Notes: a model not told the origin generated them from the letters alone. 52,904 nucleotides of DNA from an uncultured Lachnospiraceae bacterium (GCA_902795895.1 CADBNB010000204.1:1-52904), one strand, 5' to 3'. Numbered from the stretch's first letter, positions 4,472-23,007 are shown. Translations and numbers: made by a program.

Positions 4472-5215
4472 ATGAGAAATATAAGATTAGTAATCGAATA
4501 CGACGGTTCAAGATATGACGGCTGGCAGAAGCAGAAAAGAAAAGGCAGCAACACCATTCAGGAGAAAATCGAAGAGGTTTTGGAAAAGATGGAAGGAAAG
4601 CCGGTGGAGTTGATTGGCGGTGCCAGAACAGAAGCCGGGGTTCATGCTTATGAGCAGATTGCAAATTTTAAGACAGATTCCAAAAAGAAAATGTATGAAA
4701 TCAAGCATTATTTAAACCGCTACCTTCCTATGGATATTGCTGTATTGGAAGTGGATGAGGTTCCAGAACGGTTTCACAGTGCATTTGGCGCAAGAGCCTT
4801 TATCTATGAATACAAAATCACCATGGGAGATGTTCCGTCTGTATTCCAGAGAAAATACAACTATTATTGTTTCCAGCAGTTAGATGCAGAAAAAATGAGA
4901 GAAGCATCAAAATATTTCCTGGGAAAACATGATTTTAAAGCATTTTCTGACAATAAGAGAATGAAAAAATCAACAGAGAGAGTCGTCCATGAGATTGATA
5001 TTTACGCAGATATGGAAGAGATGAGTATTACCATACAGGCAGATGATTTCTGGCCTCGTATGGCAAGAATTATGGTGGGAACACTCATTGAGGTAGGACG
5101 TGGTGAAATTCCACCGGAAAAGGTAAAAGATATCATAGAAAGCAAGGATCGTGAGCAGGCAGGAGAAACTGCAGAAGCAAAAGGATTATTTTTGCAGGAA
5201 ATCATTTACGAATAA
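4472..5215 (+). CDS. truA: tRNA pseudouridine(38-40) synthase
   Basis: The N-terminus MRNIRLVIEYDGSRYDGWQKQ and the motif GGARTEAGVHA (catalytic Asp replaced by Glu or nearby) are a typical TruA pattern. AAGGAG RBS at 4460. Confidence 0.93.
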   Translation: MRNIRLVIEYDGSRYDGWQKQKRKGSNTIQEKIEEVLEKMEGKPVELIGGARTEAGVHAYEQIANFKTDSKKKMYEIKHYLNRYLPMDIAVLEVDEVPERFHSAFGARAFIYEYKITMGDVPSVFQRKYNYYCFQQLDAEKMREASKYFLGKHDFKAFSDNKRMKKSTERVVHEIDIYADMEEMSITIQADDFWPRMARIMVGTLIEVGRGEIPPEKVKDIIESKDREQAGETAEAKGLFLQEIIYE

Positions 5216-5257
5216 AACATGATAAAGTTGACATTATCCTCTTTGGGGGGTATCATT

Positions 5258-5292
5258 AAAAGGTGTGTTTATTATAAAGAACACACCTTTTT
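5258..5292 (+). terminator. Rho-independent terminator after truA
   Basis: Stem AAGGTGTGTT (5260-5269) / AACACACCTT (5280-5289) followed by a T-run. Confidence 0.75.
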
Positions 5293-5359
5293 GTAAAGAT
5301 TTGATAGCGGGACTGATGACCGCTGCTATGATAGAAATAAACATGTAGGAGGATTTAAG

Positions 5360-7774
5360 ATGGCAACTACGTACAATCACAAAGTAATTGAGAAGAAATG
5401 GCAGAAGTATTGGGAGGAGCATGAAACATTCAAGACAGATGTTTGGGACTTTTCAAAGCCTAAGTATTATGCACTTGATATGTTCCCATATCCATCAGGA
5501 GTAGGTCTTCATGCAGGACATCCTGAAGGATATACAGCCACAGATATCATGTCACGTATGAAGAGAATGCAGGGATATAACGTGCTTCATCCAATGGGAT
5601 ATGATTCTTTCGGACTTCCGGCAGAGCAGTATGCAGTAAATACGGGTAATCATCCAAATGGATTTACACAGGAAAATGTTAAGACATTCTCAAAACAGTT
5701 GAAAGAATTAGGTTTCGATTATGACTGGTCTAAGATGATTGCAACATCGGATCCTTCATTTTATAAGTGGACACAGTGGATCTTTAAGCAGTTGTATCTT
5801 GACGGATATGCAAAGCATATCGATATGCCGGTTAACTGGTGTGAAGAACTTGGAACGGTGCTTTCTAATGACGAAGTTATCGACGGAAAGAGTGAACGTG
5901 GTGGTTTCCCTGTAGTTCGTAAGAATATGCCACAGTGGGTTATCGATCAGCCTGCATTTGCTGAAAAATTGTTGGAAGGTCTTGAGGAGATTGAATGGCC
6001 TGAGTCAACAAAAGAAATGCAGAGAAACTGGATTGGTAAGAGTACCGGTGTTGAGGTAGAATTTGAAATCGTTGGTGGTGGAAAGTTTTCTATCTTTACA
6101 ACTTGTATTGAGACGATTTATGGTATTACATTTATGGTACTTGCTCCAGACGGAGATATCGTTGCAGGATTATTAGACCGTGTGGAAAATAGAGAAGAAG
6201 TTCAGGCTTATATTGATGAGACAGTGAAGAAGTCTGATATGGATAGAACAGAGTTAAATAAGACAAAGTCCGGATGTGAATTAAAAGGACTTAAGTGTAT
6301 CAATCCGGTCAATGGCAAGGAAGTTCGTATGTTTATTGGAGATTTCGTACTTGCAAGCTATGGTACAGGAGCTGTTATGGCGGTACCTACTCATGACCAG
6401 AGAGACTTTGAATATGCACAGGTACACAATATTGAGATGATTCAGGTTATCGACGGTGGAGATGTTTCTGAGCATGCATTTGAAAAGCAGGATTACCTTG
6501 GTAAAGGATGCAAGTTGATTAACTCAGACGAATTTACAGGTATGACCGTAGAGGAAGCTAAGGAAGCAATTACAGATAAATTAGAGAAGATGGGCGTTGC
6601 CAAGAGAACAGTAAATTACCGTTTCCGTGAGTGGATTTTTGCTCGTCAGAGATATTGGGGAGAGCCAGTTCCTTGTGTTTATAAGGAAGACGGAAGTATT
6701 TATTTCCTTCCTGATGAGGAATTGCCACTTGTGTTACCTGAACTTGAGGATTACAAAGGTAAAAATGGTAAAGCTCCACTTGAAAATGCTACAGAGTGGA
6801 AAAAATATGATGCAAATGGCGTAAAAGGTACAAGAGAAACATCTACAATGCCTGGTTCTGCAGGTTCTTCATGGTACTACATGAGATATATTGATCCTGA
6901 AAATGACAAAGAGTTTGCAAATCAGGAATTGTTGAAACACTGGTTACCAGTTGACTTGTATGTTGGTGGACCAGAGCATGCAGTTGGACATTTGATGTAT
7001 GCAAGAATTTGGAACAGATTCTTATATGACAAGGGCTTATCACCAGTAAAAGAGCCATTTAAGAAGTTAGTTCATCAGGGTATGATTCTTGGTTCTAACG
7101 GAGTGAAGATGGGTAAGAGATTCCCAGAGTTTGTTGTAAATCCAAGTGATGTAGTGGAAGATTACGGCGCAGATACACTTCGTTTGTACGAAATGTTTAT
7201 GGGACCGCTTGAAGTTTCTAAGCCTTGGAGTGACAGCAATCTTCAGGGTGCTAAGAGATTTATCACAAGAGTATGGACATTCTTTACAGAGCCTGAAAAT
7301 ATCGTAGACGGACCTGTAAATGAATTGGAAAAGGTATATCATCAGACAGTTAAGAAAGTTACAGAAGACTTCGAAACATTAGGATATAATACAGCCATTG
7401 CGCAGATGATGATTTTCGTAAACGAAGTTTACAAAGTTGGAAAATGTTCAAGAGAGTATGCAGAAGGCTTGATTAAGATGCTTAGCTGTGTTGCACCACA
7501 CGTTGGTGAGGAAATCTGGCAGATTTTAGGACATGATGACACAATCGCATATGAGCCATGGCCAACATTTGATGAAGCTAAATGTGTAGAAAACACAGTA
7601 GAAATCGCTGTTCAGATTAATGGTAAGACAAAGGGAACTTTGGCAATCAACAAGGATGATGCGAAGGATGACGTTATTGCCAGAGCAAAAGAAGTGATTG
7701 CAGACAAGTTAGATGGTAACATTGTGAAAGAAATCTATGTACCAGGTAGAATTGTAAATATTGTTATGAAATAA
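5360..7774 (+). CDS. leuS: Leucine--tRNA ligase
   Basis: 804 aa with a HIGH-type motif (PYPSGVGLHAGHPEGY), a KMSKS-type motif (VKMGKRF) and LeuS-typical WIGKS and RQRYWGEP motifs. Confidence 0.98.
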   Translation: MATTYNHKVIEKKWQKYWEEHETFKTDVWDFSKPKYYALDMFPYPSGVGLHAGHPEGYTATDIMSRMKRMQGYNVLHPMGYDSFGLPAEQYAVNTGNHPNGFTQENVKTFSKQLKELGFDYDWSKMIATSDPSFYKWTQWIFKQLYLDGYAKHIDMPVNWCEELGTVLSNDEVIDGKSERGGFPVVRKNMPQWVIDQPAFAEKLLEGLEEIEWPESTKEMQRNWIGKSTGVEVEFEIVGGGKFSIFTTCIETIYGITFMVLAPDGDIVAGLLDRVENREEVQAYIDETVKKSDMDRTELNKTKSGCELKGLKCINPVNGKEVRMFIGDFVLASYGTGAVMAVPTHDQRDFEYAQVHNIEMIQVIDGGDVSEHAFEKQDYLGKGCKLINSDEFTGMTVEEAKEAITDKLEKMGVAKRTVNYRFREWIFARQRYWGEPVPCVYKEDGSIYFLPDEELPLVLPELEDYKGKNGKAPLENATEWKKYDANGVKGTRETSTMPGSAGSSWYYMRYIDPENDKEFANQELLKHWLPVDLYVGGPEHAVGHLMYARIWNRFLYDKGLSPVKEPFKKLVHQGMILGSNGVKMGKRFPEFVVNPSDVVEDYGADTLRLYEMFMGPLEVSKPWSDSNLQGAKRFITRVWTFFTEPENIVDGPVNELEKVYHQTVKKVTEDFETLGYNTAIAQMMIFVNEVYKVGKCSREYAEGLIKMLSCVAPHVGEEIWQILGHDDTIAYEPWPTFDEAKCVENTVEIAVQINGKTKGTLAINKDDAKDDVIARAKEVIADKLDGNIVKEIYVPGRIVNIVMK

Positions 7775-7787
7775 TCGATATTGGAAA

Positions 7788-7814
7788 GGCGCGCATATTT
7801 TTATGCGTGCTTTT
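7788..7814 (+). terminator. Rho-independent terminator after leuS
   Basis: GGCGCGCAT (7788-7796) / ATGCGTGC (7803-7810) with one wobble pair, followed by TTTT. Confidence 0.65.
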
Positions 7815-7838
7815 CGAATATACATGGAGTGATTTTAT

Positions 7839-8069
7839 ATGAGAGAAATGGAATTTAAAATGGAGCGGCAGAATCTGGTTAAGGTCGGCCAGCATGTTGA
7901 GGTGGTAGAACGTTCCTGTCCTGCAAATTATCACTACATTATAAAACCGGCAGTTGCAATGTCCGGTTGTGTGGCGGTAGGTGACCGACTTTCCGTATTG
8001 GAAGGAACAGTGACGGATATTAAGCATAATGACAGAGGTTTTTATGTGGTAGTGGAATTTGACGAATAG
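7839..8069 (+). CDS. Hypothetical small protein (76 aa)
   Basis: The ORF has a GGAGTG RBS 7 nt upstream. It sits in a compact same-strand gene row. I do not recognise a family. Confidence 0.55.
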   Translation: MREMEFKMERQNLVKVGQHVEVVERSCPANYHYIIKPAVAMSGCVAVGDRLSVLEGTVTDIKHNDRGFYVVVEFDE

Positions 8070-8099
8070 AATCATAGAAGAAATGAAAGGAAGAAAAAT

Positions 8100-8282
8100 A
8101 TGGATATCCAGATTGGCGATATTGTGAAATTAAAAAAACAACACCCATGCGGAAGCTATGAATGGGAAGTGCTTCGTGTGGGAATTGATTTCCGGTTAAA
8201 ATGTGTTGGATGCGGACATCAGGTAATGATGCCAAGAAAACAAGTGGAACGTATTGTAAAACAAGTGAGAAAATCGGAATAA
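8100..8282 (+). CDS. DUF951-family small protein
   Basis: 60 aa. GDIVKLKKQHPCGSYEWEVLRVGIDFRLKCVGCGHQVMMPRKQ matches my recollection of the DUF951 pattern (HPCG...W...R.G.D.r.kC..CgH). Confidence 0.75.
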   Translation: MDIQIGDIVKLKKQHPCGSYEWEVLRVGIDFRLKCVGCGHQVMMPRKQVERIVKQVRKSE

Positions 8283-8311
8283 AACTTAATGTTTGACTAT
8301 AGGAGGAAAAT

Positions 8312-9574
8312 ATGAGAAAAAAAATAACCGTCGGGTTATGCCTTGCTTTTTGCTTGTTTGGTTCTGCCTGCTCGTTTGAGAGCACAGATAATGTTGTAAA
8401 AAACACACCGAAACCAAGAGCTCAAGCAACCACAAGCATTGATGCTGCAAATGAGCAGAGAAAAAATCAAATTGTTACGGATAGTACAGAAATTGATGCC
8501 ATGGCTACCACGATTGTGGAGAAACTTACATTAGAGCAAAAGGTTGGTCAGTTGTTCATTGCAAATTTGGAACAGTTAGATCAAAGTGAGGGAGAATTTG
8601 CGCAGCAGAGAGAATATAATACAAATATGGGGGAAACGTTAAGAGATTATCACATAGGTGGCGTCATTCTGTTTTCAAGAAATATAGAAAGTATCAATCA
8701 GACTACCGGACTTATCAGTTCCCTTCAGAGCAATGCAGATATACCGTTGTTTGTATCTGTGGATGAAGAAGGTGGAGATGTTGCCCGTGTAGGAAATAAT
8801 TCAAATATGAGAACTACTACATTTCCACCGATGGAGGAAGTGGGAAAAACAAAGGATGAATCTTATGTGTATCAGATGGGAGCTACCATTGGCCGTGATA
8901 TTAAATCTTTAGGATTTAACGTGGATTTTGCTCCGGTGGCGGATGTAAAAACCAATGAGTACAACAAAGAGATTGGAAATCGTTCCTTTGGAAGTGATGC
9001 AAAAAAAGTGGCGAAATTTGTGAAACAGGCAGTAATTGGTATTCAGGATCAAAATGTCAGTGCTACACTGAAACATTTTCCTGGACACGGCAGTACGACA
9101 GGAGATACCCATGATACTCCGGTAAATGTGGAGGATGACTTATATACCCTTCGTTCCAGAGAATTTTTGCCATTTCAGGCTGGAATTGATGCAGGAGCGG
9201 ATTTTGTGATGGTTTCTCACATTTCCATTAGTAAAGTTACTGAAAATACGGTTCCTGCAAGTATGTCAAAATTAGTGATTCAAAATATGTTAAGAGAAGA
9301 GCTTGGCTTTGAAGGTATTGTTATTACAGATGCCATGGATATGGGAGCAATCACTAAGGTATACGCACCTGAAAAAGCTGCAGTAAAATGTATAAAAGCA
9401 GGTGTTGATATCGTTCTTATGAGTACGGATGTAAGAAAATCCTACGAAGCAGTTTTAAAAGCGGTAAAAGATGGAACGATTTCTGAAGAACAGCTGAATG
9501 CCTCTGTAGACAGGATTATCCGTGTTAAAATAAAGCGGGGAATCATACTTAGAAATACAGATATTTTGAAATAA
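8312..9574 (+). CDS. nagZ: Glycoside hydrolase family 3 beta-N-acetylhexosaminidase, lipoprotein
   Basis: Lipobox LFGSAC. GH3 motifs are present: DEEGGDVARV, KHFPGHGSTTGDTH and ITDAMDMGAI. The size and lipoprotein form resemble Bacillus NagZ/YbbD. Confidence 0.88.
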   Translation: MRKKITVGLCLAFCLFGSACSFESTDNVVKNTPKPRAQATTSIDAANEQRKNQIVTDSTEIDAMATTIVEKLTLEQKVGQLFIANLEQLDQSEGEFAQQREYNTNMGETLRDYHIGGVILFSRNIESINQTTGLISSLQSNADIPLFVSVDEEGGDVARVGNNSNMRTTTFPPMEEVGKTKDESYVYQMGATIGRDIKSLGFNVDFAPVADVKTNEYNKEIGNRSFGSDAKKVAKFVKQAVIGIQDQNVSATLKHFPGHGSTTGDTHDTPVNVEDDLYTLRSREFLPFQAGIDAGADFVMVSHISISKVTENTVPASMSKLVIQNMLREELGFEGIVITDAMDMGAITKVYAPEKAAVKCIKAGVDIVLMSTDVRKSYEAVLKAVKDGTISEEQLNASVDRIIRVKIKRGIILRNTDILK

Positions 9575-12866: not shown

Positions 12867-14306
<1,440 letters not shown>

Positions 14307-14504: not shown

Positions 14505-14732
14505 TTAAATTTGCTCTAATAAGCTATCTTCAAACACAGTGATGTATTGTTTCCAAATAGGATAATTTACATGATTTGGATACTTCTCTGTATAATGTTC
14601 GAAAATGCTGATATACTTTTCCAAAAGTTTTGGACGAGTAGTAGCAATTGTAATGAAATCCCCGTTTAATGTTTCACATTTAGTGAAATCAATTTCGTTA
14701 ATATCCAATGATTCGTCTGTGAATAATCTCAT
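14505..14732 (-). CDS. Hypothetical small protein (75 aa)
   Basis: ORF 14505..14798(-). The ATG at 14732 follows an AAAGGGGGA RBS, and the terminator at 14381-14433 lies downstream. I do not recognise a family. Confidence 0.55.
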   Translation of the reverse strand: MRLFTDESLDINEIDFTKCETLNGDFITIATTRPKLLEKYISIFEHYTEKYPNHVNYPIWKQYITVFEDSLLEQI

Positions 14733-14907
14733 ATCCGAGTCCCCCTTTATAATTATTTGATATTGTGTACTCACACCCAATAATTCACATTTTAGCATAG
14801 TTGTTTCGCTTTTTCAAGTATTTGTAAACGATTTAAGAAAAATGTAACAAATGTAATAAAGTTTATCGTTTTTGAGGAATAGTTTCTAATATTTGTAATA
14901 GTTTATG

Positions 14908-14937
14908 TTGAATGTTGAGCCTTGATAGTGTTATAAT
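14908..14937 (+). promoter_or_regulatory. Candidate sigma-70 promoter of the six-gene operon
   Basis: TTGAAT (14908-14913), an 18-nt spacer, then a TG-extended TATAAT (14932-14937), about 35-45 nt before the first start codon. Confidence 0.4.
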
Positions 14938-14970
14938 GGAGTTATATTGTTAGTTCGTAAAAGTGCGTAG

Positions 14971-17900
14971 GTGGAAAAAGTGAAAGAAAAAATTACACAA
15001 TTATCAAGAGAAAGATTTGAGTACGATTTACCGAAATTAGTGTGCTCAAGAGAAAAATTAGAAATCGAGGTTGAGACGGGAAAAGTTGCAAAGGGTACGT
15101 TTGTACTGGGAAATACTGCTGGAAGACAGATGAAAGGACTTCTTTATTCATCTTCTCATCTGTTGGAACTTGAGATGACGTCTTTTGTGGGAGAAGAGAC
15201 GGAAATCGGATATGAATTTCATGCAGAAGATATCAGAGCGAAGGATAAGATTAATGGGCAGATCAGCGTTGTAAGTTCATGTGGAGAGATGGAATTACCA
15301 TTTGAAATTACAGTGTTGGAGAAGTTTATTGATTCACCTTTTGGTGAAGTGCGCGATTTATTCCAGTTTGCAAATCTGGCAAGATTAAATTGGCCTCAGG
15401 CGGTTAGTATTTTCAAGACAGATGCTTTTAAGGAAATATTCTTGAAAAAAGATATTGATGTGAGAAATCTGTATGAAGGACTTGTTCAAAGTGGAAAGTA
15501 CAACCAGGCATTGGAAGAATTTTTAGTATACATTCAGAAGAAGGAGCGCATGGTTCTTGAAGTGGAACAGCAGTCCTATTCTTTTGATGTAAAAAAAGAA
15601 AATGTGACGGATCAGATTGTTGTAAAGAAGAATTCCTGGGGATTTCTTGATGCAAAGATTTATTGTGATCAGCCATTTGTCCAGATTTCAAAGCAGGAAT
15701 TGACAGTTTCTGATTTTATTGGCGATGGGTGTCTTTTGGATTTTGAAGTTGACAACAGTCAGCTTCGTATTGGAAAAAATGTTGCACACATTACTATTCA
15801 GACCGCATTTCAGACCATTACCGTTGATGTTACCGTTGAGAAAAACGTGAAGCATATGGAATTGGATTACGATGAGGGAAAGATTAAAAAATGCGAAGTA
15901 ATATTGGTTGAAAGATACTTAGATTTGAGAAATAATCGTATTTCTGTTGCAGATTATGTTGCTGATATGCGAGATGCAATTACAAAACTTGACAGAATGC
16001 TGGCGGTAAAGAGAAATCTGGGTGAGTTGGGATACACCAGACGTTTGGATTTATATCGGATGCATCTTTATATGGTGGAAGGCAATAAGCAAAAAGTGCA
16101 GGAAATGATTGATGTGTTGGAACGGGAAGCTCATATTATGAAGCGCAATACCTTGGTTGATTATTGTGGATATATGTATTTGAAGGCTTTATATAGCAGA
16201 AGAGAACCTGATTTGCAGAATGCATTGCGTGAATTAAGAGAGTGCTTTAAACAGGAACCAAATTCATGGGAAATCCTTTGGATGATGATGTTTTTGGATG
16301 AAAAGTTTGAACAGGAGCCTGCAGAGAAGATAGTTGCTATCAGTGAGCAGTACGAAAGAGGATGCCGTAGTCCGATTTTATATTACGAAGTATGTAATAT
16401 CATCAATCAGGATCCGACGTTACTGAAAGAATTAACGCCATGTCTGCTTCAGGTTGTGAATATGGGCGTAAAATACATATTACTTTCAGAACCTGTGGCT
16501 GTGCAGTTTGCGTATCTTGCAGAACGCGAGAAGAAGTACAATCAACTGGTAATAAAAAATCTTGTTTACTTCTATGAAAAATATAAAAACAAAGATGTAT
16601 TATCTGCAATCTGCAGTATTATGATTAAGGCGGATATGTCTTCGATAGGCTGCTTTGAATGGTATGATACCGGAGTGAAGGAACAGTTACATCTGACACA
16701 GTTATATGAATATTACATGTATTCTATCGATGAAACCTATGAAGGTTTGTTGCCACAGGATGTATATTTGTATTTTTCATACAACACCAATTTATCAGAC
16801 GATAAAAAAGCATTTTTATATGCAAATGTTGTGAAGCATAAGAAAGAGTTAACGGAAATTTATCCGATGTTTGAAAGTCAGATACGTCTTTATGTTCAGG
16901 AACAACAGCAAAAAGGAAAGATAAACAGTCACTTGGCTGTGCTGTATAGGGAATTTATTTCTGTAAATGATATTAGTTCGTCTGTTGCACAGACATTGCC
17001 AAATATATTGTTTAAACAGCGTATCCACTGCACGCATCCAGGAATTACAGGTGTGGTTGTGAGACATAAAGAATCGGATGAGGAAATTATTGTGTCTTTG
17101 GATGAATACGGAGATGCATATGTAGATATTTTCACGGAGCATGCAAAGATATTCCTGCTTTCTTCTAACGGAAGAAGATATGTTACGAGTATTCCGTATG
17201 AGCAGGAGAAACTCATGACGAGAAATGCATTGGCGGAAGTATGTTTCCAAAAGGCTCCGAATAACCGTATGCTTTGCATGTACATATATGAAAAGATTGA
17301 ATATTATCATAAGAGAAATATTAAGATTAATGATCTTCAAAAATATATGGATGTGGATTGGTTGAAGCCGGAATATCGTAAAAAGTGGATTATGAAGCTG
17401 ATACAGAATTATTACGATAATTATGAGGGCGACGCCTTAGAAGCATTGTTGCAGGAGATTGATCTTCAGGGAATGCGTAGCTCTCAGAGAAAGCTCATTA
17501 CAGAGTATTGTATTATCCGTGGATTGTATGCACGCGCCTATGAGCAGATTTGTGAATACAGTTTTGAAGGTATCACTGTAAAGAGACTTAGAGCATTGTG
17601 CTCGAAGATGATTAAACAAAAAGGTATGGAAGAAGAAGATCAGGTTCTTTCTAATATGGCTTTTTATGTGTTTAAGAGTGGAAAATATGATGAAAATATT
17701 TTATTGTATCTGGTTCGTTTTTACCTTGGTACTACTAGGGATATGATTTTGGTTTGGAGAGAAGCCAGAGAATATGATATGGATACTATAGATTTGGAAG
17801 AACGTTTGCTTGGTCAGATTTTGTTTGCGGAAAGTTATGTAAAGGATGCCATGGACGTATTTTTATCTTTCTACGGAAGAGGAAGAAACCGTACGTTGAT

Positions 17901-18573
17901 TAAAGCGTTTGTAAGCTATTATTCTTTCAAGTATGTTGTAAAAGACAGAGTTTTAGATCCGGCGTTTTTTGAAATTGTTCGCAAGGAATTAGAAATTGAG
18001 GACAATGCATCTGCGCTTTACGCACTTCTAAAGTATTACAGTACGCTTGATAGTTGGAATGACGATCAAAAAGTATTTATCAAGGAAAAAGTGGATGTAT
18101 TGATGGAGAAAGGCATTATTTTCCCATTCTTCAAAAACTTCACAAAAGCATTAAAGTTCCATGGTGGATTGGAACATATGGTGTTTGTGGAATATCGTAC
18201 ATTGCCTGAGCGTCAGGTAGTTTTACATTACTTTGTGGAAGACGAGGAAATGGGAGAAGGATTTAATGAGATACCACTTAAGAACATGTACGGTGGCATT
18301 TATGTGCAGTCTTTCATGCTATTCCAAAACGAAACTTTGCAGTATTACATCGAAGAAGTTGTAGAGGATGAAGAACCGGTGATTACAGAGAGCATCACGG
18401 TGAAGGGCGCTGTGCAGATGGACGTGGAAGAAGAGGAAGAAGATTTGTTTGCACAGATTAATTTAATGCTTATGGCCCGTGAAATGAAAGATGAGAAGAC
18501 TTTATTGACGGCATTAAGACATTATGCGAAAAATCAATATGCATTTGAGCATGCATTTAAAATGAAAGAGTAA
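14971..18573 (+). CDS. Giant (about 1200 aa) soluble protein of unknown function: two N-terminal beta-sandwich-like segments, a long helical-repeat body and an acidic C-terminal beta-rich region
   Basis: Uninterrupted 3.6-kb ORF with GTG at 14971. The in-frame GTG at 14980 has better spacing to the RBS GGTGG. No TM segments or catalytic motifs are recognisable. It may correspond to Pfam DUF5717, but that is an unverified recollection. Confidence 0.85.
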   Translation: MEKVKEKITQLSRERFEYDLPKLVCSREKLEIEVETGKVAKGTFVLGNTAGRQMKGLLYSSSHLLELEMTSFVGEETEIGYEFHAEDIRAKDKINGQISVVSSCGEMELPFEITVLEKFIDSPFGEVRDLFQFANLARLNWPQAVSIFKTDAFKEIFLKKDIDVRNLYEGLVQSGKYNQALEEFLVYIQKKERMVLEVEQQSYSFDVKKENVTDQIVVKKNSWGFLDAKIYCDQPFVQISKQELTVSDFIGDGCLLDFEVDNSQLRIGKNVAHITIQTAFQTITVDVTVEKNVKHMELDYDEGKIKKCEVILVERYLDLRNNRISVADYVADMRDAITKLDRMLAVKRNLGELGYTRRLDLYRMHLYMVEGNKQKVQEMIDVLEREAHIMKRNTLVDYCGYMYLKALYSRREPDLQNALRELRECFKQEPNSWEILWMMMFLDEKFEQEPAEKIVAISEQYERGCRSPILYYEVCNIINQDPTLLKELTPCLLQVVNMGVKYILLSEPVAVQFAYLAEREKKYNQLVIKNLVYFYEKYKNKDVLSAICSIMIKADMSSIGCFEWYDTGVKEQLHLTQLYEYYMYSIDETYEGLLPQDVYLYFSYNTNLSDDKKAFLYANVVKHKKELTEIYPMFESQIRLYVQEQQQKGKINSHLAVLYREFISVNDISSSVAQTLPNILFKQRIHCTHPGITGVVVRHKESDEEIIVSLDEYGDAYVDIFTEHAKIFLLSSNGRRYVTSIPYEQEKLMTRNALAEVCFQKAPNNRMLCMYIYEKIEYYHKRNIKINDLQKYMDVDWLKPEYRKKWIMKLIQNYYDNYEGDALEALLQEIDLQGMRSSQRKLITEYCIIRGLYARAYEQICEYSFEGITVKRLRALCSKMIKQKGMEEEDQVLSNMAFYVFKSGKYDENILLYLVRFYLGTTRDMILVWREAREYDMDTIDLEERLLGQILFAESYVKDAMDVFLSFYGRGRNRTLIKAFVSYYSFKYVVKDRVLDPAFFEIVRKELEIEDNASALYALLKYYSTLDSWNDDQKVFIKEKVDVLMEKGIIFPFFKNFTKALKFHGGLEHMVFVEYRTLPERQVVLHYFVEDEEMGEGFNEIPLKNMYGGIYVQSFMLFQNETLQYYIEEVVEDEEPVITESITVKGAVQMDVEEEEEDLFAQINLMLMAREMKDEKTLLTALRHYAKNQYAFEHAFKMKE

Positions 18574-18638
18574 ACATAGATTAGACACCAAAATAGATAA
18601 TGATGAAAGAGATTACGACTTAAGGAAGGAGGATAAAA

Positions 18639-19946
18639 ATGTTAAGTGACGAAAGAACTCTGTTAGTAGGAGTAGAATTAGGAGAGGAAACATCCCAGAT
18701 TACATGTTTTAATCCTAACACTTATGAGCCAGAGTCGATTTGTTTCAAAAGTGATCCGGAAAAATATTTGATTCCGACGGTGTTATTTTACCGAAGAGAT
18801 ACGGGAGATTGGACATTTGGAGAAGAAGCACTAGAGTGGAACCGTGAGAAAGACGGTGTGTTAGTTAAGCATTTGGTTTCTAAAGCATCTCAAAATGAAT
18901 TAGTGGTTGTAGATGACAGGGAAGTGGAACCAAAGTATCTTTTGGAGCGTTTTATTAAGAGATTACTTGGAATGTTAAAAGTAGAATATCCAAATGATAC
19001 CATCCGGTCACTAGTAATAACGGTAAAAGAGAAAAATATGATACTCATTGACAATATCTATTCTGCTTTACAGGGATTAGGTATTAGCAAACTGAGAGCC
19101 AGCGTTCAGAGTCATGAGCAGTGCTTTGTAAATTATGCCATGAATCAGCCGAAAGAGTTGCGTGTAAATGACATTGTGTTGTTTGATTTTAATGAGGAAG
19201 GACTTAGGTATTATCAGATTTCCGTAAATCGTAGAACAGAACCACCTACAGTTGTTTTAAATAAGCGTGATTTCAAGGATATATTGCCTTATTCCTTATT
19301 GCAAAATAATACGGATATGGAAAACGTAGCGTATGTGTTTGAAAGTATTACCATGAATGTGTTGCATAAGCAGATTGTATCTACAGTATATGTGACAGGA
19401 GTGGGATTTGAGGATAATTGGTGTAAAGATGTTCTTAAAAAATTGTGTGTAGGAAGACGTGTATTTGCAGGACAGAATCTATACGCAAAAGGTGCCTGTT
19501 ATGCAGCCCGTGAAATGATAGGCGAAGGCAAATTAAAGAACTATTTGTATTTAGGCGAGGAAATGTTGGCAGTGAATATTTATACGCCGATGTTTACGGA
19601 AGCCAAAAATATAGAGTATCCATTGGTAGAAGCAGGAACTGCATGGTACAATGCAAATAAAACTATCAGTTTTATACCGGATGGAGAAATTGAAGTGGAA
19701 CTTCTTTTTGAGTATGTGGTTGGAAATCAGGTGGAACACCATTTTGTGACTATGGATGGTTTGTGGAACATGGAGAGAAAAACAAGAATTGAAATGTCAA
19801 TTGAGTTTTCAGACACACATACATGTATCGTAAGACTTCATGACAGAGGTTTTGGTGAAATTTATCCTTCTTCAAACCGTGTCTGGGAGAAGATTATTCC
19901 TATTCAGGGAAATACTACAACAAAGGAACAAAGTAAAGGGGAATGA
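18639..19946 (+). CDS. Hsp70/actin-superfamily-like protein with degenerate nucleotide-binding motifs
   Basis: RBS GGAGGA. LLVGVELGEETSQI aligns by eye with IGIDLGTTNS of Hsp70. IVLFDFNEEGLRYYQISV aligns with DLGGGTFDVS, and VYVTGVGFEDNW with the GG.TR.P adenosine motif. The glycine-rich phosphate loops are replaced by acidic residues. Confidence 0.8.
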   Translation: MLSDERTLLVGVELGEETSQITCFNPNTYEPESICFKSDPEKYLIPTVLFYRRDTGDWTFGEEALEWNREKDGVLVKHLVSKASQNELVVVDDREVEPKYLLERFIKRLLGMLKVEYPNDTIRSLVITVKEKNMILIDNIYSALQGLGISKLRASVQSHEQCFVNYAMNQPKELRVNDIVLFDFNEEGLRYYQISVNRRTEPPTVVLNKRDFKDILPYSLLQNNTDMENVAYVFESITMNVLHKQIVSTVYVTGVGFEDNWCKDVLKKLCVGRRVFAGQNLYAKGACYAAREMIGEGKLKNYLYLGEEMLAVNIYTPMFTEAKNIEYPLVEAGTAWYNANKTISFIPDGEIEVELLFEYVVGNQVEHHFVTMDGLWNMERKTRIEMSIEFSDTHTCIVRLHDRGFGEIYPSSNRVWEKIIPIQGNTTTKEQSKGE

Positions 19947-19950
19947 TAAT

Positions 19951-20793
19951 ATGGGAAGAATGATATTATGCGCAGGACCATTGGCGAAGGAACCCTATCA
20001 TTTCGCTTTGACCGGTATGAATGTATACTCGTTGGAAGAATTAGGGTATTACTTATATCACAACATATACACCATTTCACTGGATGATTTTGATAAAACA
20101 TTTTTTCAGTGGGTGGAACAGGAATTAAAACGTGAAGACCTGGCTGAGAAGTGGAAAGAAATCCGTCGTGTCAGCTCAGATATCAAGGATATTGTAGTCA
20201 GCGTGTTGTGTGCTACAGACTATTTTGGAAAACTTGAAATTGAAAGTCTTATAAAGACAGTGGATGACATTAACAATATGCCGTCAATTGAACGCCGAAA
20301 AATTGAGGCGGACAATTATATGCGTTATCAGGATTATGATAAGGCGATGCACGTATACAAAGAAATCTTGGTTTCTGATGAAGCAAAACAGATATCAGCA
20401 AAGGATTTTGGAAATATTATTCATAACATGGGTGTCATTCATGTGCATATGAAATGTTTTGAGATTGCGGAGCGTGAATTTAAACAGGCATATAGTTTAA
20501 ATCAGGATGAGGAAAGTTTGCGTGAATATTTTTATCTTTTAAAATTACAACATAAAGATAAATTATTTCTTCAGGAAGTTTTGACCTTTAATTTGTCTGA
20601 AGAAACAGTAAAAGATATTGTAAAACAGTTGGAAGATATTTTAGATGAGGCGGAAAAAACAAAAGAATATCAAAAGCTTCTTCGTTTACCAGAGGTAAAG
20701 GAGCAGGGGCGTGTTGGTGAGTATTATTACACCATTGATTCCATGATATTCAATTGGAAACAGCAGTATAAGCGTGGGATGGAGCAAAGATGA
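19951..20793 (+). CDS. TPR-like repeat protein (280 aa), unknown function
   Basis: The ATG at 19951 lies 4 nt after the upstream stop and follows an AAAGGGGA RBS. TPR-like helices include ADNYMRYQDYDKAMHVYKEIL and NMGVIHVHMKCFEIAEREFKQAYSLN. Confidence 0.78.
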   Translation: MGRMILCAGPLAKEPYHFALTGMNVYSLEELGYYLYHNIYTISLDDFDKTFFQWVEQELKREDLAEKWKEIRRVSSDIKDIVVSVLCATDYFGKLEIESLIKTVDDINNMPSIERRKIEADNYMRYQDYDKAMHVYKEILVSDEAKQISAKDFGNIIHNMGVIHVHMKCFEIAEREFKQAYSLNQDEESLREYFYLLKLQHKDKLFLQEVLTFNLSEETVKDIVKQLEDILDEAEKTKEYQKLLRLPEVKEQGRVGEYYYTIDSMIFNWKQQYKRGMEQR

Positions 20794-22064
20794 GTTTTTT
20801 GGGGTTTCGAAAAAAGAATACTAAGAAAGTAACTGAAGGGGGAACTGAGGCAATTCATGTTGGTGTAGATGCGGCTGTCAGAAAGAAACAGCAGGAACAG
20901 CGAGAAAAAAAAGAAGAGATCATTCTGGAAGATTATACACCAAATTACGAAGAAACTATACTTCCTGTGGAAGAAAGTTTCGTTTCCAATAAAACAACAG
21001 AGGAAGCTATTGAGTTTTTGGAAGAAAATTGCCGACAGATCAATGAGGCACAACAGCATGTGGACAATGCAAAAATTGAGTATCAGGCAGTATGCGAGTA
21101 TTTATCGGATGTTCAGAAAGTGGAACGTATGCCGGATGGAGAACGAAAGTTACTCAATGATTCTGCATTAAAAATTGTGAATTTAACAAAAGAGCGGGAA
21201 GATTATCAAAATCGAACGGTATTTACGGACAATCCATGTTTTCGGGCTATTCGAAAACATGAAGATACCCTTATGGAAGAATTGAAAAACATGCGAGATG
21301 CCGAACAGTATAAAAAAGTCATTGAAAACGATATGCGACAGATTAAGGCAGAAAAAAAGGCGTTAGGATACGATTATAAGAATATTCCGAGCAATCAGTC
21401 GGAGTTAAAGAAAATTACGGTTGCATTGACTTTGATTGTGGTTAGTCTGTTTGCCTTGTTTTTTGCGTTACAGTTTGGTATGGAACAGGATATGAAAATT
21501 CCATTCATGCTTACGGCAATGATGGCAGCAGTTGCATTGGCATATATTGCGTATGAGTCGCACCGAAACAAGGTGGAATATGCAATCTTAGAGAAACAGA
21601 TTAATCGTGCCATACAGGTGGAAAATAAAATTAAAATCAAATACATTAATAATACCAGTTCCCTTGACTATAGTCATAGCAAATATGGTGTAAAAAATTC
21701 CATGGAATTGGAGTATTTGATTAAAGAATACAAGAAGGCAAAAGAAGCAGAACGAACTTATGAGAGCAATACAGACAGATTGCAGCATTATCGTGAAAAA
21801 GTAGTGGATATTTTAAAAGTTCAGGAGCTTAAGGACACGGAAATATGGCTGCATCAGCTAAATGTTTTATTAAGCAAGCAAGAGTTTGAAGAGATGAAAG
21901 CCAGTTTGGAAGACAGACGCGAGAAACTGATAGAAAAAATGGATTATAATTTACAGGTGAAAGACCGTTATTTCAATCATATGCATATGGTTTTAGATGA
22001 AAAGCCTGAGTTAAAGAGTACATTACTTGAGATGATGAAGACACATAACATTTCACTTGGCTAA
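20790..22064 (+). CDS. Coiled-coil membrane protein with a central two-TM hairpin, unknown function
   Basis: ATGA start/stop overlap with the upstream gene. Two hydrophobic helices (ITVALTLIVVSLFALFFALQF and IPFMLTAMMAAVALAYIAY) are flanked by about 200-aa and 170-aa charged helical regions. Confidence 0.8.
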   Translation: MSFLGFRKKNTKKVTEGGTEAIHVGVDAAVRKKQQEQREKKEEIILEDYTPNYEETILPVEESFVSNKTTEEAIEFLEENCRQINEAQQHVDNAKIEYQAVCEYLSDVQKVERMPDGERKLLNDSALKIVNLTKEREDYQNRTVFTDNPCFRAIRKHEDTLMEELKNMRDAEQYKKVIENDMRQIKAEKKALGYDYKNIPSNQSELKKITVALTLIVVSLFALFFALQFGMEQDMKIPFMLTAMMAAVALAYIAYESHRNKVEYAILEKQINRAIQVENKIKIKYINNTSSLDYSHSKYGVKNSMELEYLIKEYKKAKEAERTYESNTDRLQHYREKVVDILKVQELKDTEIWLHQLNVLLSKQEFEEMKASLEDRREKLIEKMDYNLQVKDRYFNHMHMVLDEKPELKSTLLEMMKTHNISLG

Positions 22065-22094
22065 ATCAAAATAAAAAATGCAGGAGAAAAGGGA

Positions 22095-22664
22095 ATGAAG
22101 TTACTATTTGGAAGTGTATTTGTAATCAGCGTCATAATATTCATTTGGATAAAAATGAGAAAAAAAGATATCCTAATGGTTACAGATACACCTATGCAAG
22201 GTGAAAAAGAAAAACATTCCCTTCAAATCCGCATAAAGGTGGAAAGAAACGGTTATCAGATTAACATTCATGTGTTTCAGATGGATGATGAGGAAATCGG
22301 ACATTTGCTGGCTACGTATACTGGGAATAAGTATAATGAACAGGAAAAATACAGTCGTGCAGTCCACATAGAACAACTATTTGTGAAGCGGAAGTTTCGT
22401 CGGAAAGGGATAGCGAAAGTAATATTTCGGTATCTGATGGAGGAAATGAAGCGAATAGAACAATTGGAAGACTTTGAATTTACGTTGTTATATGGGGAAG
22501 TTGGAAATACCGGAACGGATGATCCGCATATTTCCCTTCCATTTTATCGAAAGATAGACGGGACAGAATACAATCAGGAAAAAAGGCTGCGTTTTTCTTT
22601 GGAAAAAAAGGCTGCGTTGGATGGACTTGATTGTTTTAAATATGTAATTGAGAAAAGAGGTTGA
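22095..22664 (+). CDS. Membrane-anchored GNAT-family N-acetyltransferase-like protein
   Basis: N-terminal TM helix LLFGSVFVISVIIFIWI. The GNAT motif A pattern is present in IEQLFVKRKFRRKGIAKVIFRYLMEEM (R-x-x-G-x-A). Confidence 0.7.
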   Translation: MKLLFGSVFVISVIIFIWIKMRKKDILMVTDTPMQGEKEKHSLQIRIKVERNGYQINIHVFQMDDEEIGHLLATYTGNKYNEQEKYSRAVHIEQLFVKRKFRRKGIAKVIFRYLMEEMKRIEQLEDFEFTLLYGEVGNTGTDDPHISLPFYRKIDGTEYNQEKRLRFSLEKKAALDGLDCFKYVIEKRG

Positions 22665-22668
22665 AATT

Positions 22669-22899
22669 ATGGCAATGAATCCGGCGATGATTATGAAAAT
22701 GATGTCAGCAAAAAAGACATTTGAAAACAACCATCCGAAGTTTGTGTTATTTTTGAAGCACATGTTTTCAGGTGGTGTGGAAGAAGGTACGATTATAGAA
22801 ATGACAGTTACAAAACCTGGGCAGGCACCGGTAACATCAAATATTAAAGTGCAGGCATCAGATTTGGAATTGTTAAACAGTTTAAAAGATATGAGATAA
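22669..22899 (+). CDS. Hypothetical small protein (76 aa), last gene of the operon
   Basis: The ATG at 22669 lies 4 nt after the GNAT stop and follows an AGAGG RBS. It is followed by the terminator at 22918-22947. I do not recognise a family. Confidence 0.6.
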   Translation: MAMNPAMIMKMMSAKKTFENNHPKFVLFLKHMFSGGVEEGTIIEMTVTKPGQAPVTSNIKVQASDLELLNSLKDMR

Positions 22900-22917
22900 G
22901 ACAAAATATGTGTAAAA

Positions 22918-22947
22918 GATTCGATAATTGGTATCGAGTCTTTTTTT
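22918..22947 (+). terminator. Rho-independent terminator closing the six-gene operon
   Basis: GATTCGATA (22918-22926) / TATCGAGTC (22932-22940) with one wobble pair, followed by T7 (22941-22947). Confidence 0.7.
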
Positions 22948-22978
22948 ATGTAAGAGGAGAATCCTATTTATTAATCAC

Positions 22979-23007
22979 TTGACTTTAAAAAAATATATGT
23001 TTATAAT
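22979..23007 (+). promoter_or_regulatory. Near-consensus sigma-70 promoter of the zur-znu locus
   Basis: TTGACT (22979-22984), a 17-nt spacer, then TATAAT (23002-23007). Confidence 0.65.

Follow-up and report, generated by a model that had tools for sequence, protein, structure and literature searches.

An operon of six genes (g1 to g6; Table 1), found in a stretch of 52,904 nucleotides from an uncultured Lachnospiraceae bacterium (GCA_902795895.1, CADBNB010000204.1:1-52904; the whole stretch is called the window below), encodes a putative Hsp70-based assembly, atypical and uncharacterized, whose components belong to known fold classes. The product of g2 is predicted to have the Hsp70 fold without its helical lid, and g2 lies between the genes of a giant scaffold protein (g1) and a TPR-like protein (g3). 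We propose that these products form a stable, probably ATP-independent complex of an Hsp70-like clamp and a scaffold, which would be tethered to the membrane in this genome; a probability of roughly 45% is assigned to this reading. A preliminary description of the DNA had placed none of the six products in a characterized secretion, defense, division, sporulation or metabolic system, and Pfam, NCBIfam, PADLOC 2.0, PHROGs, the PDB sequences and the literature were indeed all empty in this respect. NCBIfam, PADLOC 2.0 and PHROGs gave no meaningful match for any of the six proteins. In a full-text literature search, no work on DUF5716 or DUF5717 was found, as the single paper with the label DUF5716 treats an unrelated topic, and searches for atypical or fourth bacterial Hsp70s returned nothing relevant.

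The sequence of g2 is assigned by Pfam to DUF5716_C (E = 1.7e-99, 333 bits, above the gathering threshold, with near-complete coverage of the model). This was the only family reported, as no match to Pfam HSP70 (PF00012) was obtained at E-values up to 1. Searches against PDB chains with the single sequences of g1 and g2, phmmer included, also gave nothing useful. The AlphaFold model of g2, built from 41 homologues, has a predicted local distance difference test (pLDDT) score of 90 and a predicted template modelling (pTM) score of 0.86. It is divided into a reduced nucleotide-binding domain (residues ~1-295), a hydrophobic linker (~302-305) and a beta substrate-binding domain (~310-421), and, as modelled, this is a true Hsp70 fold. 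The 50 best PDB matches listed by Foldseek are all Hsp70s, with DnaK as the best one (E = 4e-20) and BiP, Hsc70, Ssb and Ssz1 (6sr6, 7x3k, 5mb9) also on the list. The structural alignments span both the nucleotide-binding and the beta substrate-binding domain, at ~12% identity.

The helical lid of the substrate-binding domain (SBD-alpha) is missing in the g2 model. The final strand reaches residue 421 of 435, after which only a low-confidence tail remains, and the C-terminus is variable across the family. A reduction of lobe IIB is suggested as well, because the modelled span between strands 204-212 and 247-253 is short. The idea of a degenerate Hsp70-like protein, already put forward in the preliminary description, is thus borne out by the AlphaFold model, by Foldseek and by the motif profile presented next. 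Its "actin-like" qualification can be dropped, since the fold matches Hsp70 including the beta substrate-binding domain.

The motif profile, which represents 257 family members, reveals strongly altered phosphate-binding loops. The phosphate-1 loop reads G-x-D-L-[C/G/S]-[D/N/E]-[D/E]-[Y/F]-[S/T]-Q in the g2 family, compared with G-I-D-L-G-T-T-N-S in Hsp70, and the phosphate-2 loop reads D-F-[D/S/N]-[E/K]-x-G-L, compared with D-L-G-G-G-T-F. Relative to the Hsp70 references DLGTTNS and DLGGGTFD, TT is exchanged for [D/N/E][D/E] and GGG for [D/S/N][E/K]x. No Lys is conserved at the position that aligns, in a weak-register mapping, with K70 of DnaK. The linker (302-308) is kept as [Y/F]-[L/I/V]-[F/Y/L]-L followed by acidic residues. 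Because the Gly and Thr residues of both loops are lost, g2 probably runs no ATP cycle; that it has no ATPase activity is a well-founded inference, not a result. No J domain was detected in the six operon proteins (no DnaJ match in Pfam at E-values up to 1), and no conserved HPD motif is present in the alignments of g1, g3 or g4.

An indication of a partner for g2 comes from g3. In this protein, a conserved domain at the N-terminus is followed by one or two TPR motifs (~110-195) and then by a helical tail. It had been described as a TPR protein; the motifs are there, but they stay below threshold, so that "TPR-like" is the more appropriate term than certified member of the TPR family. Pfam TPR_2 reaches 23.8 bits against a gathering cut-off of 27, sub-threshold TPR matches are present in 10 of 25 members of the g3 family, and a g3 profile gave weak TPR matches among PDB chains (E of 0.05 or worse), with STI-1 and Tah1 at E-values of 0.3-0.7. 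Fusions of g2 and g3 into one protein of ~700 residues, compared with ~420 for g2 by itself, account for at least 10 of the 150 top-ranking representatives. Over their C-terminal 280 residues, such fusions can be aligned with g3 along its full length (E = 7e-57 and 1e-17), and a linker of 15-20 residues joins the two parts. A single g2-g3 open reading frame (ORF) was also encountered in 18 of the 81 metagenome loci, about one fifth. Because g3 is fused after the C-terminus of g2 in these lineages, at the position where the lid would start, we infer that g3 is a physical partner of g2 and could take the role of its lid.

With one fused protein (P0471) as the query, the metagenomes gave no match, and the scan was repeated with an alignment. 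The invariant N-terminus of g3 (MGxxILCAG) was also considered as a free pseudo-substrate peptide, a role that is weakened by the internal location of this segment in the fusion proteins.

The third member of the core, g1, matches DUF5717_N (E = 1.5e-273, 910 bits) and DUF5717 (2e-86, 290 bits) in Pfam with near-complete coverage of the models. The labels DUF5717 for g1 and DUF5716 for g2, which had been suggested in the preliminary description, are therefore correct; both proteins are full-length, high-scoring members of entries that merely catalogue sequences. The AlphaFold model of g1 (pLDDT 86) agrees with the layout that had been read from the sequence, namely two N-terminal beta-sandwiches, helical repeats and an acidic, beta-rich C-terminal part, and adds one further beta domain at 682-747 (Table 1). 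Foldseek yielded local matches only, none spanning the whole protein, with template modelling scores (TM-scores) of 0.16 or lower. The tandem sandwiches match domains of the ASH, MSP, BACON and Ig types, and the helices match generic TPR solenoids of large scaffolds such as Naa15 of NatA (E = 2e-5), Ctr9, Ski3 and IFT-A. Against viral structures, the search gave generic Ig-like and BACON matches only. Neither an enzyme family nor a catalytic signature was detected in g1 by Pfam or by AlphaFold and Foldseek, and no transmembrane segment is present. Judged from the model, g1 is a scaffold with a combination of domains for which there is no solved analogue.

The conservation of the operon was analyzed in ~165 loci from Lachnospiraceae genomes and metagenomes, with 10 kb on each side of the match and one genome per species in the genome scan. 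Relatives of g2 are found in at least 554 species-level genomes, and an exhaustive profile search (E up to 1e-30) resulted in 659 clusters at 50% identity. Among the loci kept, the labels are those of Lachnospiraceae genera (Anaerocolumna, Herbinix, Mobilitalea and Lachnoclostridium, among others) or of less precisely assigned metagenome-assembled genomes of Clostridia; one locus (L057) carries the label Anaerolineaceae. The order and the strand of g1-g2-g3 do not vary among the 80 genome loci or the 84 others, as far as the contigs reach, and they hold down to 25-28% identity, for instance in Blautia hydrogenotrophica. In the most distant loci, this Blautia and one other contig, only g1-g2-g3 are present (g1 at 26-28% identity), followed by unrelated transporters. 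The 80 further loci from metagenomes give the same picture as the genome loci.

The co-occurrence of all six genes as a block could not be upheld. Whereas g1-g3 are present in all loci reached, g4 follows g3 in 68 of 81 genome loci, g5 occurs in eight loci and g6 in none. Gene content thus indicates a conserved core of g1-g2-g3, extended to four genes in many lineages, with g5 and g6 as lineage-specific passengers. The surroundings are made up of purB, purA and a CobD/HisC-like gene upstream, and of leuS or valS, a TPR and zinc-ribbon protein and spoIIAA-AB-sigF downstream. Because this housekeeping neighborhood is syntenic, the core appears to be a vertically inherited module of the core genome and not a mobile or defense island.

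The g4 protein has a central transmembrane hairpin (205-255) between two heptad-like helical regions (66-199 and 263-347), according to hydropathy and a crude heptad heuristic. Among the six proteins, hydropathy reveals transmembrane-like segments in g4 (205-233 and 235-255) and g5 (1-22) only. A similarity of g4 to DUF2207_C in Pfam is sub-threshold, and a g4 profile gave nothing useful among PDB chains. The gene is missing in Blautia hydrogenotrophica and several other lineages, among them most of those with a g2-g3 fusion; L081 and L082 belong to the loci without it. No conserved replacement is found in such loci, where unrelated housekeeping genes, for example valS or those of an esterase-like protein and ABC transporters, lie downstream. 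From this distribution, g4 is an accessory and frequent fourth member of the system.

Fifteen of the 18 loci with a fused g2-g3 have no g4 (L105, L111, L113, L115, L123, L125-L127, L129, L139, L153, L155-L157 and L161), a pairing that could reflect a clade effect or a functional trade-off. A lone, distant g4-like protein (22% identity, E = 3e-4) is encoded at 9001-10263 of L083, a Defluviitaleaceae contig, where it adjoins valS and folC with no g1-g3 nearby. If this protein is a true homologue, g4 would be older than its recruitment to the operon.

In the complex that we propose, the functional unit would be a cytoplasmic assembly of the three proteins g1, g2 and g3, often joined by g4 as a fourth member. 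Here g2 would be a permanent peptide clamp or a structural subunit, like Ssz1, instead of an ATP-cycling chaperone, g3 would take the position of the missing Hsp70 lid on it, and g1 would be the giant scaffold that organizes the assembly. In this genome and in most relatives, the complex would be kept at the inner side of the membrane by the transmembrane hairpin of g4. The membrane-anchored GNAT encoded by g5, which was added in the clade of the window, may acetylate a component or a client.

Several observations weigh against this proposal. The acidic equivalents of DnaK D8 and D194 and the T-G-x-G-F motif of subdomain IIA are retained in the g2 family, and judging from these residues g2 could still bind some nucleotide or metal. 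The mapping of motifs between g2 and DnaK combines secondary-structure register, the motif pattern and a weak hhalign match to a hand-typed E. coli DnaK sequence; this match covers the N-terminal 150 residues only, at a probability of 2%, and was used for register only. The structure models are those of the g1 and g2 monomers, and no result hints at a client or at the process in the cell that is served. Finally, membrane tethering would not be intrinsic to the system, because g4 is missing in several lineages. The term "membrane-associated", used in the preliminary description, therefore fits this genome and many relatives but not the system as a whole.

In another explanation, g2 would be an active chaperone that is driven by ATP and whose nucleotide site is non-canonical, with g1 and g3 as co-chaperones in place of the J-protein and the exchange factor; together, the three would fold specific clients or insert them. 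The Hsp70 architecture is retained as a whole, down to the hydrophobic linker between the domains that serves in allostery, D13, D183 and the G254/G256 motif of g2 are conserved, and TPR proteins are common co-chaperones of Hsp70. We nevertheless consider this explanation unlikely: the Gly and Thr residues that contact the phosphates are lost from both loops and acidic residues stand there instead in most members, the lobe IIB region is short in the model, the operon contains neither a J domain nor an HPD motif, and there is no lid for trapping a substrate.

Slightly more doubtful is a landmark complex, positional or cytoskeletal, for division, shape or sporulation, with g2 acting at the membrane in the manner of FtsA or another actin-fold protein and g1 as the organizing scaffold. 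Hsp70 and actin/FtsA share the fold of their nucleotide-binding parts, a membrane coiled-coil partner is encoded in the operon, the distribution is family-wide, and the locus belongs to the core genome, often a few genes from spoIIAA-spoIIAB-sigF. However, every one of the 50 best listed structural matches of g2 is an Hsp70, and the matches extend to the beta substrate-binding domain, which actin-like proteins lack. The promoter is of the vegetative sigma-A type and not of a sporulation-sigma type, the nearby spoIIA, separated by leuS or valS, seems to reflect no more than synteny, and there is no evidence of polymerization.

It is very improbable that the operon encodes the bacterial equivalent of the factors that work at the ribosome exit site in eukaryotes, with a Naa15-like scaffold, a Naa10-like GNAT and an Ssz1-like Hsp70 acting on nascent chains at the membrane. 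This possibility was raised by the Foldseek match of the g1 solenoid to Naa15 (E = 2e-5), by Ssz1 among the matches of g2 and by weak PDB matches of g5 to Naa10/ARD1 and archaeal N-terminal acetyltransferases (E = 0.2-0.6). All three similarities are fold-generic, with g1 TM-scores of at most 0.16 and E-values of the GNAT that are not significant; Ctr9, Ski3 and IFT-A match g1 equally well, almost every lineage lacks the GNAT, and no element for binding to the ribosome was recognized. A system for phage defense or another conflict, which large multi-domain proteins of unknown function with TPR and ATPase-like partners might recall since they are common in defense islands, is hardly credible for a single-copy locus with a syntenic housekeeping setting family-wide (purB/purA on one side, leuS/valS or zur-znuABC on the other), no PADLOC or PHROG matches, no nuclease, protease or other effector domain in Pfam and no flanking mobile-element genes.

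The proposed clamp-and-scaffold complex has its closest parallel in yeast Ssz1. This non-hydrolyzing Hsp70 binds ATP, has a truncated substrate-binding domain and is a permanent, partner-locked subunit that does not cycle on clients; it pairs with the J-protein Zuo1 on the ribosome in the ribosome-associated complex (RAC). The Hsp70 fold is common to both proteins, a truncation is also seen in the g2 model, and a partner-locked logic is proposed for g2 with g3 and g1. In contrast to Ssz1, the g2 operon has no J domain, the phosphate loops of g2 are far more degenerate, its partners are a TPR-like protein and a 1,200-residue scaffold, and the identity is only ~12-14%. Because there is no J domain and no evident link to the ribosome, the parallel with Ssz1 and the RAC is one of logic, by analogy, and not of membership.

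Hop/Sti1, CHIP and Tah1, TPR co-chaperones of Hsp70/Hsp90, clamp the C-terminal EEVD of Hsp70. A protein with one or two TPR motifs beside an Hsp70-like protein is reminiscent of these, but g2 has no EEVD tail, and in many lineages g3 is attached covalently behind the substrate-binding domain. The large TPR scaffolds mentioned above resemble the solenoids of g1 locally, and none of them spans g1.

Three prokaryotic Hsp70 types are recognized, DnaK, HscA and HscC, and the latter two keep most of the ATP-binding residues (PMC8215388). The domain order of g2 is the same as theirs, with a nucleotide-binding domain, a hydrophobic linker and a beta substrate-binding domain. It differs from them in its length (435 residues, compared with roughly 560-640), in the absence of a helical lid and of a Pfam HSP70 match, in its degenerate phosphate loops and in having no J-protein or GrpE partner in the operon. 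Consequently, g2 is outside all three types. Tentatively, and with less confidence than the complex itself, DUF5716 might be regarded as a fourth prokaryotic Hsp70 class: an ATP-independent, lidless clamp whose lid is replaced by a separate or fused TPR-like protein and which is built into a giant scaffold, as a Lachnospiraceae-specific machine of the core genome without a counterpart among the described bacterial chaperone, division, secretion and defense systems.

Lachnospiraceae are among the most abundant gut bacteria of humans and animals, and the module takes up ~6-8 kb of their core chromosome. If g2 is indeed a partner-locked pseudo-Hsp70, the list of prokaryotic Hsp70 types (DnaK, HscA, HscC) would be extended, and bacteria would have arrived on their own at the "structural Hsp70" solution of the eukaryotic RAC. 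Concrete handles for experiments are offered by the g2-g3 fusions that occur naturally and by the optional membrane tether.

Table 1. Features of the operon (nucleotide positions in the window) and segments of the g1 protein (residue numbers)
Feature	Position	Strand	Description
Promoter-like element	14908-14937	+	sigma-A-type, TTGAAT-18-(TG)TTATAAT, ~42 nt 5' of the g1 start; consensus scan
g1	14980-18573 (ORF opens at GTG 14971)	+	DUF5717 scaffold protein, 1197 aa (1200 aa from GTG 14971)
g2	18639-19946	+	DUF5716, lidless Hsp70-fold protein (predicted), 435 aa
g3	19951-20793 (ATG 19951)	+	TPR-like putative partner, 280 aa
g4	20790-22064	+	membrane protein, 424 aa; start overlaps g3 stop (ATGA)
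g5	22095-22664	+	GNAT acetyltransferase with N-terminal transmembrane anchor, 189 aa
g6	22669-22899 (ATG 22669)	+	76-aa ORF with good ribosome-binding site
Intrinsic terminator	22914-22951	+	13-bp stem (22914-22944), 5-nt loop, T-run
g1 segment	23-127		Ig-like beta-sandwich; AlphaFold model
g1 segment	130-187		helical bundle, strongly conserved; AlphaFold model
g1 segment	196-291		second Ig-like beta-sandwich; AlphaFold model
g1 segment	302-680		TPR-like solenoid; AlphaFold model
g1 segment	682-747		small beta domain, splits the solenoid; AlphaFold model
g1 segment	752-1059		second solenoid; AlphaFold model
g1 segment	1070-1145		beta domain; AlphaFold model
g1 segment	1159-1194		terminal helices; AlphaFold model

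The organization of the operon is as had been described before: six ORFs on the + strand (14971-22899), with spacings of 65, 4, -4 (ATGA), 30 and 4 nt, are preceded by the promoter-like element and followed by a strong terminator, which supports a single transcription unit. Of the two possible starts of g1, GTG 14980 is the likelier, because it is preceded by AGGTGG and the public gene calls for the identical protein give 1197 residues. According to a start-codon heuristic based on ribosome-binding sites, the start of g1 is TTG or GTG in most of the related loci L001-L080 as well. The conserved non-ATG start of this 1,200-residue protein suggests a deliberately low translation relative to g2-g4.

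By itself, the promoter-like element is not above chance, as the same scan found 36 such sites where 43 were expected; it has 10 of 12 consensus matches and a TG extension. Its conservation is more informative. Of 108 distinct homologous loci, 63 have an extended -10 element (TGnTAnAAT) within 200 nt 5' of g1, compared with 5% of shuffles, and the exact sequence GTGTTATAAT is found upstream of g1 in 35 of these 108. On this motif evidence, the operon is read from a conserved vegetative promoter of the sigma-A type. The RNA fold of the terminator has a stability of -15.5 kcal/mol (z = -3.9), which was reached by none of 200 shuffles. Further downstream, a separate promoter-like site (22979-23007, + strand, TTGACT-17-TATAAT), with 11 of 12 consensus matches the best one in the scanned region, precedes zur-znuABC, a zinc-uptake operon made of a Fur-family regulator and ZnuA/ABC/ABC-3 components. 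The boundaries of the operon are thus sound, because of the conserved -10 element upstream, the strong terminator and this separate site.

A scan of the whole window (1-52904) with Rfam at the gathering thresholds gave zero matches to RNA families, and hence no leader RNA. T-box and purine riboswitch leaders are common in Firmicutes, but the scan detected neither a T-box ahead of leuS (5360) nor a purine riboswitch in the vicinity of purF, purB or purA.

The two last genes of the operon have a narrow distribution. Pfam assigns g5 to Acetyltransf_1 (28.3 bits, cut-off 20.7), and its acetyl-CoA motif Q/R-x-x-G-x-G/A is intact as R-R-K-G-I-A and conserved in eight homologues. These homologues, with 35-41% identity, are restricted to the eight closest loci (L001-L008). 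The GNAT, which had been noted as the only evident enzyme, is on this distribution a recent addition specific to the clade of the window and not the enzyme of the system. The membership of g6 in the system is doubtful. It has no match in Pfam, NCBIfam, PHROGs or PADLOC and no homologue in the 164 fetched loci or in a scan of viral contigs; its cluster at 90% identity has 3 members, and g6 is restricted to the species of the window.

The surroundings of the operon differ in some respects between the window and the related loci. In Blautia and in 50 of 81 loci, a divergent gene for a CobD/HisC-like pyridoxal phosphate enzyme (TIGR01140, 277 bits, just under the cut-off of 290) is the immediate upstream neighbor of g1, for example at 5105-6214 (-) of L001 and 7804-8901 (-) of L081. 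Because it is absent from the window and from other loci, it was rejected as a partner of the system and regarded as mere synteny. The intergenic region between this gene and g1 could serve in their co-regulation.

The purA gene of the window (12885-14306, +) has 35-40% identity to purA of all 23 related loci, whereas the latter are 80-99% identical to one another (compared with L001), purB reaches 76-93%, and g1 and g2 reach up to 66-71%. From these identities, purA of the window looks like a non-orthologous replacement. Its divergence coincides with the loss of two genes that relatives have nearby, the CobD/HisC-like gene and a 366-residue gene that intervenes between purB and purA. The gene leuS (5360-7774, +) is located ~7 kb upstream of the operon in the window and directly after g4 in many relatives, which indicates that the locus was rearranged in this lineage. 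Between purA and g1, an ORF of 97 residues (14505-14798, -) has its own promoter-like site (14817-14789, -). It has no match in Pfam, PHROGs or NCBIfam, and a 75-residue homologue is found at the same place in 7 related loci.

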